From assembly GCA_963755655.1 (NCBI GenBank), contig CAVWKX010000002.1, positions 44,837 through 108,836 on the forward strand: a stretch of 64,000 bases of DNA, given 5' to 3'. Both the position numbers and the translations under genes were made by a program. Shown one piece after another: positions 30,553 to 38,856 of this stretch. Position 1 is the first letter of the stretch. Each line of letters opens with the position of its first letter. The DNA comes from an uncultured Acidimicrobiaceae bacterium. Its GTDB lineage: Bacteria; Actinomycetota; Acidimicrobiia; Acidimicrobiales; RAAP-2. Below the pieces are notes generated by a model that worked only from the letters and a program-made list of their open reading frames with translations, was not told where the DNA came from and searched no databases.

Positions 30553-33022
30553 ATGCGCCGCACCCCCTTCAACGACGGCTGGACGGTCGGAACCAAGGCG
30601 AACTCCTTTGCGGAGATGATCGCGGGAGCGGGCTCGGCGCCGCTGCCGGTGACCCTGCCCCACGACGCCATGATCGCCACCGAGAGGTCGCCCGCCGGGC
30701 ACGCGGCGACGGCGTATTTCCCGGCGGGCAGCTGGGAGTACAAGAAGTCGTTCGAGCTCTCGCCGAGCGACGCCGGGAGCGCCGTCTTCCTGGAGTTCGA
30801 CGGCGTCTACCGCGATGCGCTGGTGCGCGTGAACGACGCCATGGTCGCCCACCGGCCGGGCGGCTATTCGGACTTCACCGTCCAGGTCGACCATCTGTTG
30901 CGGTTCGGTGAGCCCAACGAGGTGAAGGTCGAGGCACGCGCCCACGACGACAGCCGGTGGTACTCGGGAGCCGGCATCTACCGCAGCGTCTGGTTGCTGC
31001 AGGCGGGCCGGGTCCATCTGGTGCCCGGCGGCCTGCAGCTGGTCACGCCGGAGATCGATGACGACGTGGCAATGGTGGCCGTCAGTGCCGAGGTGCGGAA
31101 CCAATCAGTGGGGACGTCGAACGCCGTCCTCCGCGTGGAGATCCTCGATGCGGACGGGAGGTGCGTCGCCACGGCGGAGGCGCCGGTCACGACGGTGCCG
31201 GGCGACGTCCTCACGGCCCGGCAACGGCTGTGTGTCCCTGCACCACACCGGTGGGGTCCCGACGATCCCTACCTCTACACGTGCCGGGCCAGCTTGCTGG
31301 AGGGCGACCGGGTGGTGGACGAGGAGTCGACGACGTTCGGGATCCGGACGTTGACGGCCGACCCCACGCGGGGATTGCGCATCAACGGGGAGCCCGTCCT
31401 GCTCCGCGGCGCCTGCGTCCACCACGACAACGGCCTGCTCGGTGCGGCCACCATCGACCGCGCCGAGGAACGACGGGTCGAGCTCCTCAAGGAGGCCGGG
31501 TTCAACGCGATCAGGAGTGCGCACAACCCCTTGAGCAAGCCGATGCTCGCGGCCTGTGATCGTCTCGGGATGCTCGTCATGGACGAGACCTTCGACATGT
31601 GGACGCAGCCGAAGAGCGAGCACGACTACGCCCTGCGCTTCCCCGACTGGTGGGAGGCGGACGTGGAAGCCATGGTCCGCAAGGACTTCAACCACCCGAG
31701 CGTGATCCTGTACAGCATCGGCAACGAGATCCCGGAGGCGGGGACGCCGATGGGTGCACGCGTCGGCCGTGCGCTGGCGGAGAAGATCCGGTCGCTCGAC
31801 ACCACGCGGTTCGTCACCGAAGGCATCAGCGGGCTCCTCGTCGGCGGTGCCGAGCTCTTCGCCCAGCTGGCCGAGAGCCGCGACAGTGCGGCGCGACCCG
31901 AGGAGAACCCGGACGAGGAGACGGGCGTGAACACCGCCATGACGCAGATCGCCGATCGGCTCAACGACCTGATGACGGCGCCGGTCGTGGCCAAGAACTC
32001 CGCCCAGACCGCCTCGTATCTCGACGTGGTCGGGTACAACTACATGGAGACGCGGTTCGCCATGGACGGCGAGCTCTATCCGAACCGCGTGATCGTCGGC
32101 AGCGAGACGCATCCCGCGGCGATCGACACCGGCTGGGCGGCGGTCCGCCGGCATGCCCACGTGATCGGGGACTTCACGTGGACCGGCTGGGACTACCTGG
32201 GCGAGGCCGGGATCGGCCGCACCGTCTACGGCCAGACCGGGTTCGACGCCCGGCATCCAGTCGTTCCTGGGCGAGTACCCGTGGCGGACCGCCTGGTGTG
32301 GCGACATCGACATCACGGGTCACCGGCGCCCCCAGTCGTACTACCGCGAGATCGTCTTCGGGCTGCGGGCGGACCCGTACCTCGCCGTGCAGCGACCCGA
32401 GCACCACGGCGAGGTCGGCGCCGGCACGCCGTGGTCCTGGAGCGACGTGGTGTCGAGCTGGAGCTGGGCCGGGCACGAGGGCGCGCCGGTGACGGTGGAG
32501 GTCTACGCCGATGCCGACGAGGTCGAGCTGCTCGTGAACGGCCGCTCGCGTGGGCCGGCAGCCGACCGGCGCGCGCGCACCGCTACCGGTCGGCGTTCGA
32601 GACAACGTACGAACCGGGCCTGCTGGAGGCCGTCGCCTGGCGCGACGGAACCGAACGCGGTCGCATGGCCATCCGCTCGGCCAAGGAGCGAGGTGCTGCT
32701 CGACGCCGACGTCGATCGCCCGGTCATCGCGGCCGATCCCGAAGACCTGGCCTTCGTGACCCTCGGTCTGGTCGACGGCGACGGCACGCTCCACGTGGTG
32801 CGCGACCGACGCGTCGACGTGCAGGTCGACGGGCCCGGCGTGCTGCAGGCCCTGGGCAGCGCGAACCCCGCCACCGAGGAAGGCTTCGCGGGGACGAGCT
32901 GCACCACCTTCGACGGGCGCGCCCTGGCCATCGTCCGGCCGACCGGCGCGGGGCGGATCACGCTCCGCGCCACGGCGGAAGGGTGCGAGCCGCAGCAGGT
33001 CGAGATCGATGCCCGCTCCTGA
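30553..33022 (+). pseudogene. GH2 glycoside hydrolase (beta-galactosidase-like), about 4 frameshifts in the last 800 nt
   Basis: Intact to about 32250 (NHPSVILYSIGNEIPE, WTGWDYLGEAGIG). Blocks YPWRTAWCGDIDITGHRRPQSYY, HRYRSAFETTYEPGLLEAVAW and DLAFVTLGLVDGDG then lie in alternating frames. Confidence 0.8.
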
Positions 33023-33040
33023 GCTGCGAGCGGGTCGGCC

Positions 33041-34032
33041 GTGACCTGGGAGCTGCGCTGGCATCCGTTCCGCGGCCAGTGGGTCCTCTTCACGTCCCAC
33101 CGGGACGCCCGGCCCTGGATCGGCGAGATCGCGGCCCCGGAGGAACCACCGGTCCCCGACGACAACGCGCTGGCGCCCCTCGGCACGCGGCTGCACGGGA
33201 CCAATCCCGACTACCGGGGGGTCTACGTGTTCACGAACGACCTCCCGGTGTTCTCGCCGGACGCGCCGGTGCCCGAGTCCGAGCCGAGCGGACGACGTCT
33301 ACCGGACACGGCGCGCCGCTGGGCACGGCCGAGGTCGTCTGCTACCACCACGACCCCACCCGCTCGATGGCCGACCTCACCGACGACGAGATGGCGGCCA
33401 TCGTCACCACCTGGCGCGATCGCACGGAGGCGTTGCAGGGGCAGGAGGGCGTGGCGCACGTCCTCATCTTCGAGAACCGGGGCGCCATGGTCGGCACCTC
33501 GAATCCGCACCCGCACTGCCAGATCTACGCCGGCTCGATGGTGTACGCCACCATGGCCCGCGAGGCGGAGGTGGCGCGCGAGCACCACCGGCGGACGGGG
33601 CGCTCGCTGCTGGCCGAGGTGATCGAGCGGGAGGCGGACGGGCCCCGCGTCGTCAGCGAGGGTGACCATTTCTTCGCCTGCGTCCCGTGGTTCGCGCAGT
33701 ACGCCTACGAGGTGCACATCCTGCCGCGGCGGCCCGTGACGTCACTGGTGGACCTCGACGAGGACGAATGCCGTTCGCTCGGGCTCGTCCTGCGCGACGT
33801 GGTGCGGCGCTACGACGCGTTGTGGGGCTTTCGCCTGCCCTACGTCCTGGCGGTGCATCAGGCCCCCGTCGGCGACCATCCGCACTACCCGTTCCATCTG
33901 GAGCTGCACCCGCCGCTCCGGGCTCCGGGCCTGCGCAAGTACCTGGCCGGTCCCGAGGTGGGCGGCGGCTCCATGACCAACGAGTCGGACCCCGACCAGA
34001 AGGCGGAGGAGCTCCGTGCCGCCCTCGCCTGA
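33041..34032 (+). pseudogene. galT: galactose-1-phosphate uridylyltransferase, 1-2 frameshifts near 33290-33320
   Basis: GTG 33041 gives TWELRWHPFRGQWV. The HPHCQIYAG (HxHxQ) block sits in the frame of the 30388..34032 run-on ORF. Confidence 0.8.
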
Positions 34033-34940
34033 GGAGGCCCGCCGGCTCCTCTGCGCGCTCGGCGAGCACGTGCGCGACCTCGTCGTCGGCTCCCGGGGCA
34101 TGGACATGGCGGCGGTGGCGGGGGAGACGGTGGCCGACACCATCTACGCCATCGACCGGGTGGCGGACGACGCGCTCCTGCAGTGGTTCGAGGAGCACTG
34201 GCCTGACGTCGTGGTCGTCTCCGAAGGGCTCGACGAGCCCGTCCAGGTCGGGAGCAGCCACGCCTGGACCGTGATCGTCGACACCATCGACGGCACGCGG
34301 GGGCTGATGTACGACAAGCGACCGGCCTGGTGCCTGGCCGCCGCGGCGCCGCCGGGCGGCGGTCTGGCGGACATCGTCGCGGCGGCCATGACCGAACTGC
34401 CCACGGCCAAGCAGGGCGCGGCCGACCAGTTGAGCGCCACCCGTGGCGGCGGCCTGCGGGCCGAGCGCGTCGACCTCGCCCGCGGCGGGCGACAGCGCGC
34501 TGGACGTCCGGCCGTCCGCGGCGACGGACCTCGAGCACAGCTTCAGCGGTCTGGCGAAGTTCTTCCTCCCCGGCAAGACGGCCCTGGCCGCGCTCGAGGC
34601 CGAGCTGTTCCGGAGGCTGGGCGAGACCCAGGTCTTCGACGACCAGTACCTCTCGACCGGCGGGCAGCTCCACGAGCTGATCACGGGCCGGGACCGCTTC
34701 GTCGCCGACCTGCGCCCGCTCGTCACGGACGACGGTCTGGCCTGCCATCCCTACGACGTCTGCACGTCCTTGTTGCTCGAAGAAGTGGGTGGCGTCGTCA
34801 CCGATCCCTGGGGCGACCCGTTGGCCGTGCCGTTGGACAACGTGACCCCGGTCGCCTGGGTCGGCTACGCCAACGAGGCGCTGGCGGCGCGGATCGGCCC
34901 CGTGCTGGCGGAGCTGGTGGACGAGCTGCGTGCGGGGTAG
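34016..34940 (+). pseudogene. inositol-monophosphatase/FBPase-fold protein, 1 frameshift near 34480
   Basis: VDTIDGTRG (DPIDGT-like) is in ORF 34016..35203. The C-terminal HPYDVC...WVGYANEAL is in ORF 34443..34940. Its start overlaps the galT end. Confidence 0.65.
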
Positions 34941-36038
34941 CGCGCCCGGGCGTCTCGACCTCCTCGGTGGGGTGGCGGACTACTCGGGCGCGCTCGTGCT
35001 CGAAATGCCGACCCGCCAGCGCACCGAGGTCGTCGCCCATCCCGACGACGCGTTGGTCGTCGGCCCCGTCACCTTCCGCCGCGCCGATCTCGAGCGCCTG
35101 GCCGGCCTCCCCTTCGCCGCTCTGCGCCGGGAGCTGGCCGCGTGTCCCCGCTGGACGCAGTACGTCGTCGGTGTCGCCCTGGTGCTGGTGCGCCACGGGG
35201 TGATCGAGGCCCCTCTGGTCCGGCTCGAGATCACCTCGGACCTCCCGGTGTCGGTGGGAGTCGCCTCGAGCGCGGCGCTCGAGGTGGCGACGGCCCGAGC
35301 CCTCGGCGCAGCGGCACGTCGAGCCGCTCCGCCTGGCGGCGCTGTGCCAGGAGGCGGAGAACCACGTGGTCGGCGCGCCCTGCGGGATCATGGATCAGGT
35401 CGCAGTGGTGTCGGGCACGGCCGACGCCGTGCTGCCGATTCTGTGCCGGCCGGCGTCGGTGGCGGATCCGGTCGCGTTGCCGGCGGGGCTCGAGATCGTC
35501 GGCTGGCCGACGGGCGCTCCCCACAACGTCGGCGGCGTGCCGTACGGGCGAGCCCGCGCCGCCGCCTTCATGGGCAAGCGCATGGTGGAGGGCGCCGCCG
35601 GGCGCGCACGTGGCCCTGGGTGAGCCAGCTGCCGCGGCCGGCGGTGGCAGGACGCTGCCGGACGTGCTCGAGGGCCGGGCCTTCCTGGAGGAGTGGGGCG
35701 ACACCGACGACGACGTCACCGTCGGTGCGACCAGGACGAGACGTATCCAGTGCGGGCCGCCACGTTGTTCGGCGTCGAGGAGCACGTGCGGGCCGTGGCC
35801 GCGCTGGCGGCATTGCGCGACGGGGAGCCGGAGCGTCTCGGGCCGCTGATGGAGGCCAGCCAGGACGGGTACGACGCCATGGGCCTGGGCCATCCGAGCG
35901 CGACGGCGATCGTCGAGGAGGCGTTGGCCCGTCCCGGCGTGCTCGGCGCGCCGCTCCAGTGGGGGCGGCTGCGGTGGCACCGTGGTGGTCCTGTGCGTGC
36001 GTGGCGCGTTGGACGACGTGGACGGGCTCATCCGCTGA
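34930..36038 (+). pseudogene. GHMP-family sugar kinase (galactokinase-like), at least 4 frameshifts
   Basis: APGRLDLLGGVADYSGALVLEMP, PVSVGVASSAALEVA, GAPCGIMDQ and a C-terminal block in ORF 35693..36172. Its start overlaps the previous gene. Confidence 0.7.
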
Positions 36039-36540
36039 GTGGCTGCGTCCGGCGAGCGGGATGTCCACGGGCGGAGCGGCTACCCGAGGACCAGTGGAAT
36101 CGGATATCGGGTGCGTTCTCTTCGTTGTCGCCGTCGGTTGCTCCGACTGGCACGAACCCGTGGCGCCGGTAGAAGGTCCGTGCCCTCGAGTTCGATCGAA
36201 ACGTCCACAGGTCCAGCTTCCCGTCGCTGAACTGCTTGGCGTGCTCCAGCAAGGCCGAGCCGCAGCCGCATGCCCGTTCGGTCGGGGTCGACGTAGAGCT
36301 GGTCGACCCAGTCTCCCTCCAGGACGAGGAGCGCCACGAGCCGCCGCCCTGCGTCCATGACCCACGTGCCGCCCTTCGGGATCACCTCGGATGCGAACCA
36401 GGACAGCACCTCTTCGGCGTCGTGGACGGGAGCGGGGATGGCCGGGATGGATGCCATGCGGGCTACGGACCCAAAGGCCGGCGACGCGCCGGAGCATCGT
36501 GCCGATGAGCGAGGCGGATGGCGCGTGGCGGGCATTCCCT
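36028..36540 (-). pseudogene. GNAT family N-acetyltransferase, frameshifted
   Basis: QLYVDPDRTGMGCGSALLEHAKQF is only reconstituted across two frames (ORFs 36080..36652 and 36028..36252). The N-terminal end is uncertain. Confidence 0.55.
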
Positions 36541-36615
36541 TCCACCCTCCCAGCCTGCCTCGACGCGGCCCACCGTGCTGGCGCCCTGCCGTCTGCACGG
36601 TGATTGCGCACCACG

Positions 36616-36972
36616 ATGTCGCAGCGACCGGCAAGACTGCCTCCCATGGCATTCGGGCAGCAGCAAGGACCGCCGGCGACGGGGCGACAGGTGCAGGAGC
36701 TGTTGGCTCTGCTGCAAGAAGCCGGGCACAGCGACTTCCGAGATGCGCGCGGTCCGATGGGGTTCACCCAACGGCAGGCTGGAGGCAAGTTCACCCGCGC
36801 CGAGGCGGATGCACTCCTGGAGCAGTTGCGTGACCAGGAGCCGGAAGTAGAGAAGGCGATCGAGGTCCCGATATGGCGGCGGTCGGTCCAAGACGACGTA
36901 CTGAGTCAGATTCCCGCCGAACGGCTCGCCATCGAACTTCGCCGCCGCGGCTGGACGGTCGCCGAACCGTAA
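36616..36972 (+). CDS. hypothetical protein
   Basis: Coding-like composition (ELLALLQEAGHSDFRDARGPMGFTQRQAGGKFTRAEADALLEQL). No domain recognised. ATG 36616 or 36646. Confidence 0.5.
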   Translation: MSQRPARLPPMAFGQQQGPPATGRQVQELLALLQEAGHSDFRDARGPMGFTQRQAGGKFTRAEADALLEQLRDQEPEVEKAIEVPIWRRSVQDDVLSQIPAERLAIELRRRGWTVAEP

Positions 36973-37318
36973 AGCTTCCGGCGAGCGGGGGGTCGTCGGT
37001 CAGTTCGGATGAGACAGGCTGTACCGTTTCAGCCGTGAAGCGCGGTGGGCTCCCTTACGCTCTCCTGGGCGTGCTGTGAGCGGCCGTCGGCATCGCTGCC
37101 GGCCTTGGGGCGGCGGCCTCGCCGGAACGGGCCATACCTCCGAATCGTCCACGAACTGTTTCGGTCGCTCCTTGCCGATCGAGCGCTCACTCCGCTTGTT
37201 CATACGTGATCTCGACTCGCTGGCAGTCGGCACCCTGACACGGCCAGATCACACTGAGCCCCAACCGAGCGGGGAGACGCCGGCGGGAACTCGCTAGCGT
37301 TCGGGCGGGAGGCACGCC

Positions 37319-38509
37319 ATGGTGGACGAGCGCTCGCTGCAGGGTCACTGCAGGCAACTGGTCGAGGACCTGATCGCCCGGAACGCCCTCTGGTCGGAGC
37401 CGGTGCGGCAAGCCTTTCTCGCGGTGCCCCGCCACCCCTTCGTTCCCCGGTCTCCGGTCGACGAGGCCTACAGGGTTGACCGGGCCATCCCGACGCATTT
37501 CGACGAACGCGGCGTCTCGATCTCTTCCTCGAGTGCGCCCACCATCATGGCGATCATGTTGGAGCTGCTCAATGCGGCACCGGGCCAACGGGTCCTCGAG
37601 ATCGGAGCCGGGACCGGCTACAACGCAGCCTTGCTCTCCCACCTGGTGGGTGAAGCAGGCGCTGTCACCTCCATCGACATCGACGAAGAGGTGGCGCGAG
37701 AAGCGTCGCACCACCTCGCCGAGGTGGGTGCATCACGGGTCGAGGTCCTCTGCCAGGACGGCTGGTTGGGCGAGGCTCGCAACGCTCCGTTCGAGCGCAT
37801 GATCGCCACGGTCGAGTGCTGGGACATCTCACCCCATTGGCACCGCCAGCTCACCGATGGTGGCGTCCTCGTCCTGCCCTTGGCGCTCGGACCCGGGCTC
37901 ACCCTGGCGGTCGCCTTCGAGAAGGTCGGACAGAGCCTCGAGAGCATGTCGATGGCCTACTGCGGCTTCATGCCGCTTCGTGGACCTCATGCGGGCCCGG
38001 AGAACCGGACGTTGGTATCGCGGTGGGATGCCATGGTTGCCGATCGTCGGGAGGAGTCCAGGTGGCTGGCGGTGGTGCCCGAGGCGACTCCGGAACGGTG
38101 TGACGCCCTTCGGGAGCTGCTGGCCGGCGGTGTCACCCGAAGGGTGGCGGCACCTCGACTGGTTGCGGGCTGGAACGTGCGCCTCGTTCTCGAAGAGCCC
38201 GATCCGATCCATCTCTTCGAGGTCGGGGGCACGCCGCCCCGCAATGCCATGGGCCTCTTCGATCCTGATCGACGGAGCCTGGCCGTGGTCGAGGGCGAAT
38301 CGATCATTTCATTCGGTGCGGAGACATGCCTTGAACGCGTGGTCGATCGCCTCACGACGGGCGAGCCATTCGACCTGCGGGAGCTCCAGATCACCGCCAC
38401 GCCGAGTCGACCCGGTCGTGGGGGCGCCGCTCTCCTTCGCCGCCCGCATATCGACTTGGCGCTCAGCTCTCGACAGGCGCCATCCTCACGTCGGAAATCG
38501 CCCAACTAG
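37319..38509 (+). CDS. protein-L-isoaspartate O-methyltransferase (PIMT) homolog with ~180-aa C-terminal extension (RiPP-associated type)
   Basis: GGGAGG lies 7 nt upstream of the ATG. PIMT blocks AFLAVPRHPFVP and the SAM motif VLEIGAGTGYNAALL. At 396 aa it is far longer than canonical PIMT (~210 aa). Confidence 0.85.
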   Translation: MVDERSLQGHCRQLVEDLIARNALWSEPVRQAFLAVPRHPFVPRSPVDEAYRVDRAIPTHFDERGVSISSSSAPTIMAIMLELLNAAPGQRVLEIGAGTGYNAALLSHLVGEAGAVTSIDIDEEVAREASHHLAEVGASRVEVLCQDGWLGEARNAPFERMIATVECWDISPHWHRQLTDGGVLVLPLALGPGLTLAVAFEKVGQSLESMSMAYCGFMPLRGPHAGPENRTLVSRWDAMVADRREESRWLAVVPEATPERCDALRELLAGGVTRRVAAPRLVAGWNVRLVLEEPDPIHLFEVGGTPPRNAMGLFDPDRRSLAVVEGESIISFGAETCLERVVDRLTTGEPFDLRELQITATPSRPGRGGAALLRRPHIDLALSSRQAPSSRRKSPN

Positions 38510-38856
38510 CTGCTGGACGCCCGGCATCGGATGCACGTGCGGGCTGTCGGCAGCGCGACCAGGCGTTCCTGCGGGATCGCAGCGCCACACTGTTCGCACA
38601 CACCGTACGTGCCGTCTGCGATCCGCCCTTGAGCACGTGCAAGTTCTTCCAGATACATACGTCCTTGGGCCAAGAGTGTGGAGACCCTCGCTCGTTCGAA
38701 GGCGACCGTCGAACCCTCGGGGTCATGTTCGTCGTCAGAGTTGGCGTGAGCGGTCCCCGCAACGATGTCGTCGAATTCGGCACTCAATGCCTCGATCCGA
38801 GCGGTGGTCGACTCCTTCTCCGCCTGGACGAGGTCTGATGGGCTCAGTTCGGTCAT
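38506..38856 (-). CDS. TraR/DksA family C4-type zinc-finger protein
   Basis: CEQCGAAIPQERLVALPTARTCIRC (CxxC-n17-CxxC) preceded by a coiled-coil-like region. Confidence 0.85.
   Translation of the reverse strand: MTELSPSDLVQAEKESTTARIEALSAEFDDIVAGTAHANSDDEHDPEGSTVAFERARVSTLLAQGRMYLEELARAQGRIADGTYGVCEQCGAAIPQERLVALPTARTCIRCRASSS

Follow-up and report, generated by a model that had tools for sequence, protein, structure and literature searches.

Whether a long protein isoaspartyl methyltransferase (PIMT) that has no recognisable biosynthetic partner beside it helps to make a ribosomally synthesised and post-translationally modified peptide (RiPP), or works on its own, is the question raised by one gene of an uncultured Acidimicrobiaceae bacterium. 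The gene lies at 37319..38509 on the forward strand of the 64,000-nucleotide stretch of DNA that we analysed (hereafter, the window) and is an uninterrupted open reading frame (ORF) which starts with ATG and encodes 396 amino acids (aa). An earlier, model-made reading of the letters alone (the sequence-only reading) had regarded the product as a methyltransferase of the RiPP-tailoring type and had conceived of a minimal two-gene system, with the peptide substrate encoded by one of two small upstream ORFs. From our analysis, the gene probably encodes a functional, vertically inherited enzyme that stands alone, outside any local RiPP system, and that acts on a substrate or substrates encoded elsewhere.

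The gene is intact, and its product is predicted to be a long S-adenosylmethionine (SAM)-dependent protein (iso)aspartyl O-methyltransferase of the PIMT/PAMT clade. A Shine-Dalgarno sequence, GGGAGG (37307..37312, + strand), can be read 6 nt 5' of the ATG, and GGAGGA occupies the equivalent position in the relative L100 (loci compared with the window carry L numbers). The N-terminal catalytic PIMT domain (residues 1-225; 37319..37993, + strand) was delimited from Pfam and NCBIfam alignments spanning residues 13-234, and the Pfam family PCMT matches residues 13-221 with 131 bits (E 7e-38), which bears out the initial description of a complete PIMT domain followed by a long C-terminal extension (∼175 aa). 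The SAM motif VLEIGAGTGYNAALL occupies residues 92-106, with EIGAGTGY at 94-101, and the window protein therefore carries the GxGxG SAM-binding motif of PIMT catalytic domains. Along with EIGAGTGY, the pre-region I motif SSSSAP and the post-region III motif GGVLVLPL are invariant or nearly invariant in 84 homologs. The AlphaFold2 model built on the alignment of these 84 homologs has a pLDDT of 93.3 and a pTM of 0.91, and in Foldseek comparisons its catalytic fold superposes on the PIMTs of E. coli, M. jannaschii, and P. aerophilum with a TM score of ∼0.9 (normalised to the target). The closest known structure is that of the T. maritima PIMT (TmPIMT; 1DL5), which we take to be a protein-repair L-isoaspartyl methyltransferase; it is the top PDB match by sequence profile (E 2.8e-46) and also the top Foldseek match (E 2.5e-21), with 356 aligned columns that cover both domains. 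A second PIMT paralog or a canonical Pcm was searched for within the 64-kb window and none was found.

The remainder of the protein forms a C-terminal domain of about 170-175 aa (37994..38506, + strand), which conservation, the AlphaFold2 model, and profile alignment (hhalign) identify as a diverged domain of the PAMT/TmPIMT type. The extension is kept in more than 100 full-length homologs, and among 84 of full length the conserved positions are GW..RL at 284-289, G312, G333, R340, P350, and R375..D379 (R..FDL). In the model, it folds as a second alpha/beta domain whose elements (beta274-alpha285-beta296-beta309-beta320-beta328-alpha336, plus extra strands) contain the beta-alpha-4beta-alpha core described for RiPP-associated enzymes and TmPIMT (PMC10787088), so that the extension, which exceeds 100 aa, has the fold shared with TmPIMT. 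When the C-domain alone was searched against 1.84 billion representative proteins, just 58 clusters were recovered at E <= 1e-3, and all near-full-length matches (about 350-480 aa) carry it at around residues 210-400, after an N-terminal region of PIMT size, with the exception of one weak hit of 1310 aa. The sequence-only reading had asked whether the extension might match a domain foreign to RiPP enzymes. The fold, the alignment with 1DL5, the position behind PIMT-sized regions, and an hhalign comparison of the family C-domain with the C-domains of homologs bearing the motif WxxxGxP (probability 89%, E 2.2e-6, 124 columns) together indicate a PAMT-type domain and not an unrelated one.

The motif WxxxGxP is conserved near the end of the C-domain in lasso-, graspetide-, and imiditide-associated enzymes and is reported to be important in TceM and LihM (PMC13001092; imiditide preprint). 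It is present in many other long homologs of our locus set, and absent, by alignment, from the window protein and from the consensus of its family; a regular-expression search of the family members L008, L010, and L011 gave no match either. In the profile-profile alignment WxxxGRP falls on RLTTGEP, which is indicative that the Trp and the in-register Gly have been lost and the Pro (P350) alone has been kept. The C-domain is thus a narrow, diverged PAMT-type variant without WxxxGxP, and presumably it is this domain that chooses the substrate.

The homolog search with the methyltransferase returned more than 3500 matches. The nearest relatives in the genome collection are metagenome-assembled genomes (MAGs) of uncultured Acidimicrobiaceae (73-76% identity), followed by MAGs of other Acidimicrobiales and Acidimicrobiia (48-53%); as far as these sequences go, the subfamily is small and so far almost restricted to Acidimicrobiia, in metagenome assemblies. 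The metagenome locus L001 is 98% identical and collinear with the window over 13 kb, and L002, L008, and L009 (74-76% identity) share the block GH2, GalT, IMPase, GalK, GNAT (- strand), and PIMT (+ strand). Between L001 and L002 the PIMT identity is 75%, inside the range of the syntenic neighbours (69-89%). Compared with L100, L002, and L008, the ratio of nonsynonymous to synonymous substitution rates (dN/dS) of the methyltransferase gene is 0.25-0.29 overall, 0.17-0.25 in the N-domain, and 0.30-0.39 in the C-domain. Given the shared block, the neighbour-like identity, and these ratios, the gene is vertically inherited, under selection, and chromosomal rather than part of a mobile cluster. It follows that a C-terminal "substrate-recognition" domain can drop WxxxGxP and yet stay under selection. 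The intact frame that had been remarked among damaged accessory genes is likewise confirmed, as the gene differs from that of L001 by 10 substitutions and 0 indels, against 75 indel columns at 31.9-36.6 kb.

A dedicated partner gene should recur beside the methyltransferase, and we compared the neighbourhoods of full-length homologs (42-98% identity) from eight independent lineages, namely the window with L001 and L100; L002, L008, and L009; L003-L007; L010; L011 and L092; L046; L088 and L089; and L090. The neighbours are unrelated between the eight lineages and include GNAT, a CMAS-type methyltransferase together with a 118-aa ORF, an alcohol dehydrogenase whose gene shares 4 nt with that of the PIMT, PadR, MerR, and a long ORF without family assignment which is hemerythrin-like by eye only. 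In an all-against-all BLASTP of the ORFs of 13 loci (minimum length 30 aa), the methyltransferase, with its shadow frames, was all that different lineages had in common at this place; an ORF of generic methyltransferase/RibD_C type turns up in six loci at varying distance. Searched by tblastn against 87 loci, the larger upstream ORF of the window (in a longer-start form, ORF122), the smaller one (ORF73), and the translated gap between the former and the methyltransferase gene were matched in the window and L001 only. In several loci, there is also little room: the homolog of L002 has gaps of 99 and 38 bp on its two sides, and that of L092 overlaps its upstream gene and has 118 bp downstream, so that with gaps of 38-118 bp or overlapping genes L002/L008/L009 and L092 leave no space for a precursor gene. 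These unrelated neighbours and small gaps, together with the evidence on the two upstream ORFs given below, leave no conserved small ORF next to the homologs, and this is the very outcome that the sequence-only reading had named as counting against its two-gene proposal.

The wider surroundings are equally plain. Within about ±15 kb we found no ATP-grasp, lasso, or Lan enzyme (Pfam searches of L001 over ±6 kb and of ten window ORFs at 22-30 and 44-49 kb), in agreement with the first reading, and no surE in the methyltransferase neighbourhood; the Pfam content of the surveyed flanks is sugar metabolism, regulators, transport, and unrelated enzymes (e.g., methylmalonyl-CoA mutase). A screen for same-strand ORFs rich in Lys/Gly/Pro/Asp or carrying CxxCxGxG beside 80 genome-collection homologs gave no convincing precursor, a negative that is unvalidated, for the screen was meant to have its positive control in the Nonomuraea, Actinomadura, and Nocardiopsis homologs, whose genera are typical carriers of imiditides or cysimiditides, and found nothing even beside these. 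The conclusion that a precursor is lacking is therefore based on synteny and gap sizes and not on that filter. Just 5' of the long PIMT genes of Nonomuraea, we noticed a conserved, divergently oriented 95-aa ORF (MLTLT..AAQAIRDLT...; L030 5536-5823 and L035 5589-5876, both - strand). A functional pairing of GNAT and PIMT was also considered and rejected, since the divergent GNAT gene is kept only within the synteny block of 74-98% identity and not in other lineages.

Long PIMTs without partners are not exceptional. Among the 9408 long PIMT homologs surveyed by Lee et al. (2023; PMC10787088), 30% are in known RiPP clusters; two-gene pamtide clusters account for 1539, FHA-VWA clusters for 1410, and a place beside radical SAM genes for 249, and 3653 are without a clue to their partner; 70% of the long PAMT-clade enzymes have no known RiPP neighbour. 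The initial statement that such length is characteristic of RiPP loci was hence too strong, and because partnerless long PIMTs are common and documented, length alone carries no implication of RiPP chemistry. TmPIMT itself belongs to the same long PAMT clade and is treated as a canonical PIMT (PMC10787088, PMC13001092). The unassigned PAMTs of Lee et al. (2023) are the best-fitting category for the window protein, being long, with a C-domain of more than 100 aa and without RiPP core enzyme, precursor, or conserved neighbour; they come, however, from an Actinomycetes-dominated set of NCBI genomes, whereas the window subfamily is known almost only from Acidimicrobiia metagenomes and has lost WxxxGxP. 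With partnerless long PIMTs already on record, the distinctions of the present case, a small Acidimicrobiia-specific subfamily and the loss of WxxxGxP, are modest, and it adds to the large pool of orphan long PIMT/PAMT enzymes a clean example seen in eight independent genomic contexts.

If the enzyme acts as its family does, the N-terminal domain would bind SAM and methylate an (iso)aspartyl carboxylate, the methyl ester would collapse spontaneously to an aspartimide, and the aspartimide would hydrolyse to Asp or isoaspartate (isoAsp); the choice of substrate would presumably fall to the C-domain, a divergent relative of the domain by which RiPP PAMTs and TmPIMT recognise theirs. For methylation of L-Asp versus isoAsp no sequence determinant is known (PMC13001092), and Zhu and Link (2026), in their review, leave open whether orphan long PIMTs serve repair or site-specific Asp modification; for the window enzyme, we infer both the substrate and the preference between Asp and isoAsp from its relatives. 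The role that we tentatively and slightly favour, by analogy with the long enzyme of T. maritima, is general repair of proteins damaged by isoAsp formation, although we hold it for somewhat less than an even chance; modification of one specific protein encoded in trans is a possibility of a little lower standing. The T. maritima enzyme has the same layout, with an alpha/beta domain C-terminal to the PIMT catalytic domain, belongs to the same clade, and is stand-alone, with no precursor. It differs in that the identity is 23% (Foldseek alignment), the relative orientation of the domains is not the same (root-mean-square deviation 9 Å), its C-domain has ∼100 aa against ∼170 aa with extra strands in the window protein, and it retains WxxxG where the window protein has neither W nor G in register. 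The canonical short Pcm (e.g., E. coli Pcm) shares the catalytic fold and motifs, but is a single-domain protein of ∼210 aa, often encoded as surE-pcm, unlike the 396-aa window protein with its C-domain and no surE.

Several observations weigh against this reading of a stand-alone enzyme. By curated models, the catalytic domain appears nearer to the FxLD RiPP-type methyltransferases (253 bits) than to housekeeping Pcm (114-143 bits), and the C-domain, conserved and specialised as it is, fits a specific substrate better than promiscuous repair. The small size of the subfamily (58 C-domain clusters) is unusual for a housekeeping function. The methyltransferase gene follows a 108-aa ORF from which it is only 50 bp apart in L100, and the two may be co-transcribed. 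Lastly, the activity and substrate ascribed to the window enzyme are extrapolated from its family.

The last but one of these points leads to the original proposal, a two-gene system like those of imiditides or pamtides, in which the enzyme would aspartimidylate the product of the adjacent, co-transcribed 108-aa ORF (ORF108) or a peptide from the gap such as ORF73. We regard this as improbable. The enzymes of imiditide (type I pamtide; NmaM, SpaM) and cysimiditide (type II pamtide) systems do resemble the window protein in architecture, length (300-450 aa), the GxGxG motif, and the lack of any further biosynthetic enzyme nearby; however, they are known from Streptomyces, Actinomadura, Nonomuraea, and Nocardiopsis, and the window has neither WxxxGxP in the enzyme nor a conserved adjacent precursor, be it a 30-75-aa Gly/Pro/Lys/Asp-rich peptide or one with CxxCxGxG. 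Imiditide enzymes also have a specific 41-aa C-terminal motif (imiditide preprint), and their precursors are 30-75 aa long and rich in Gly, Pro, Lys, and Asp (imiditide preprint; PMC10787088). Looking for such a precursor on the same strand, up to 500 bp before and 1000 bp after the methyltransferase gene, we found no Asp-containing Gly/Pro/Lys/Asp-rich ORF of 30-75 aa, ORF73 alone being of the right size.

Both upstream ORFs named by the sequence-only reading exist, but the larger, described as 119 aa from 36616, is better placed at 36646..36972 (+ strand) with 108 aa, and the smaller is most likely not a gene. For ORF108 we chose the ATG at 36646 over starts at 36604 or 36616 because its homologs all open with the invariant MAFGQQ.GPPA. 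It encodes a conserved helical protein to which no function is assigned, recognisable as coding from its homologs and its GC pattern (0.78/0.46/0.74 by codon position) and with a dN/dS of 0.14. The family counts 5479 homologs, mostly 70-95% identical, with a GHSDFRDARGPMGFTQRQA.GKFTR block, an invariant GHSDFRDARGP block, and a C-terminal ELRRRGW. The AlphaFold2 model (pLDDT 76) is helical, residues 65-75 forming a disordered linker, and searches with the protein gave no match in Pfam (best DUF3072, E 0.15) or NCBIfam and none of significance among PDB folds (best E 0.9).

As a substrate, ORF108 has in its favour that it lies directly 5' of the PIMT gene on the same strand in the window, L001, and L100/L101 (with the 50-bp gap in L100), that it has invariant Asp residues (e.g., in FRDARGP), and that cysimiditides set a precedent for folded substrates (PMC13001092). 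Nevertheless, this adjacency is seen in one of the eight PIMT lineages; at the other PIMT loci tested by tblastn ORF108 is absent, and in the three independent contexts of its own homologs that we examined (L093, L095, and L096-99) no PIMT accompanies it. Its helical, 108-aa product is also unlike the known short precursors. ORF108 is thus not a dedicated partner of the methyltransferase.

A comparable arrangement was noticed in L003-L007, the lineage of 54% identity (more than 20 metagenome contigs), where the 118-aa ORF (L003 4636-4992) stops 8 nt short of the PIMT homolog, with which it is probably coupled in translation. This ORF could speak for a two-gene organisation, but it has no Pfam match, is unrelated to ORF108, and is confined to its own lineage, being found beside no other homolog by tblastn of the 87 loci.

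The case for a peptide from the gap is no better. ORF73 (37076..37297, + strand) starts with GTG and ends 21 nt before the methyltransferase ATG; its GC by codon position (0.64/0.65/0.73) shows no coding pattern, as against 0.71/0.50/0.79 for the PIMT gene, it was matched only in the 98% relative L001 (tblastn, 87 loci), and its product would contain no Lys and 14% Arg. It lies in a lineage-specific intergenic stretch of ∼300 bp (about 36991..37290), between ORF108 and the methyltransferase gene, which the window and L001 have in common; by alignment with L100, the 86% relative L100/L101 lacks it and has 50 bp between the two genes. A 9-bp direct repeat, CGAGCGGGG, flanks the stretch (36982-36990 and 37266-37274). 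A mobile-element origin was considered and rejected, the stretch being unique in the window and in all loci and so not shown to be a repeat. In the 347-bp gap (36973-37318), there was no sign of a structured RNA (no Rfam match at E <= 1; RNA folding z-score +0.61), and no promoter- or terminator-like site was found. With neighbours that differ among eight lineages, precursor space lacking in several of them, and two unsuited ORFs, the two-gene proposal could not be sustained. If sustained, it would have widened imiditide-type chemistry to take in Acidimicrobiia as well as a substrate of protein size, for which we find no support.

Conceivably, the subfamily could instead be a dedicated modifier that converts a single Asp of some folded protein of the cell, encoded in trans or loosely linked, to aspartimide or isoAsp, and the ORF108 protein, with its invariant GHSDFRDARGP block and its position directly 5' here, would be a candidate substrate. 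We give this no more than a slender chance; if true, it would be a regulatory or structural protein modification and neither natural product synthesis nor repair.

A further alternative is a tailoring role in classical RiPP biosynthesis (of an FxLD lanthipeptide, graspetide, or lasso peptide), with the core genes of the cluster located elsewhere in the genome or lost and the enzyme left behind as a relic. The sequence-only reading had suggested scoring the protein with models of RiPP methyltransferases against those of housekeeping Pcm, and the top NCBIfam model is indeed the FxLD-system (lanthipeptide; OlvSA type) methyltransferase TIGR04364, with which the catalytic domain scores 253 bits against a cut-off of 320. 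The model for the methyltransferase of the ATP-grasp peptide maturase (graspetide) system, TIGR04188, gives 157 bits (cut-off 380), the housekeeping Pcm equivalogs (TIGR00080 and NF001453 among them) 143, 135, and 114 bits (cut-offs 188, 282, and 159), and the long Thermotoga-type model NF010550 112 bits (cut-off 359). Being under each NCBIfam cut-off, the window protein is outside every curated subfamily. Its RiPP-tailoring character thus holds in part, in the rank of the FxLD model for the catalytic domain and the homology of the C-domain with RiPP PAMTs, and fails where membership of any of these families is concerned.

We calibrated TIGR04364 on L068, L076, L059, L024, and L026 (homologs from Streptomyces, Pseudonocardia, and one Acidimicrobiaceae), which score 334-368 bits and align end to end. 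Members of the window family (window, L003, and L092) score 253-277 bits and align mainly over the N-domain, up to profile position 226-291 of 394 (positions 7-226 for the window protein), so that the departure from the curated FxLD enzymes is located in the C-domain, which in the window protein stays unaligned. The label "methyltransferase of FxLD system" which JGI gives to some cluster members agrees with such a role, as does the presence of a true FxLD-type enzyme in at least one Acidimicrobiaceae MAG (L024 5971-7206; 354 bits, full-length alignment), which indicates that RiPP-type and orphan-type long PIMTs are both present in this family. Yet no LanB, LanC, or FxLD precursor lies near the window gene, no Lan, ATP-grasp, or lasso genes appear in the eight lineage contexts, and purifying selection throughout indicates that the subfamily is not a decaying relic. 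On balance, we consider a tailoring role of this kind very improbable. Equally remote is a PIMT fold repurposed for a non-protein or non-Asp substrate (e.g., a small molecule) or for a non-catalytic role, which the divergent C-domain, the narrow subfamily, and the lack of an identified partner would allow, but which sits poorly with the retention of all PIMT-specific substrate and SAM motifs (pre-region I SSSSAP, regions I-III, and post-region III) and with the superposition on PIMTs at the TM score given above.

The sequence changes in character to the left of these genes. Compared with L001, the 75 indel columns lie at 31895-36588, mostly as isolated 1-3-base events with some clustered, and they leave the GH2, GalT, IMPase, GalK, and GNAT genes with broken reading frames. 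Only 2 indels fall between 36.6 and 44.5 kb, and at 36.6-38.5 kb the substitutions amount to ∼1%. The boundary in indel density falls at ∼36590, just 5' of ORF108; an artefact of assembly or polishing, a chimera of strains, the edge of a recombined segment, or genuine decay of the genes could each account for it.

On the other side, a DksA/TraR-type C4 zinc-finger gene (38506..38856, - strand) converges on the methyltransferase gene, the two stops overlapping by 4 nt. Its product matches Pfam zf-dskA_traR (E 1.7e-12) and falls under the cut-offs of the NCBIfam yteA/DksA-like models. No such gene was found beside PIMT homologs elsewhere by tblastn or in the all-against-all ORF comparison, and it is a mere neighbour of the methyltransferase. 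In L095 (4001-4677), a 75%-identical ORF108 homolog is convergent with a DksA/TraR zinc-finger gene, with a 4-nt overlap, and the window (36646-38856) has the same pair with the methyltransferase gene between them. This difference in arrangement points to a gain or loss of the PIMT gene between ORF108 and the DksA/TraR gene.

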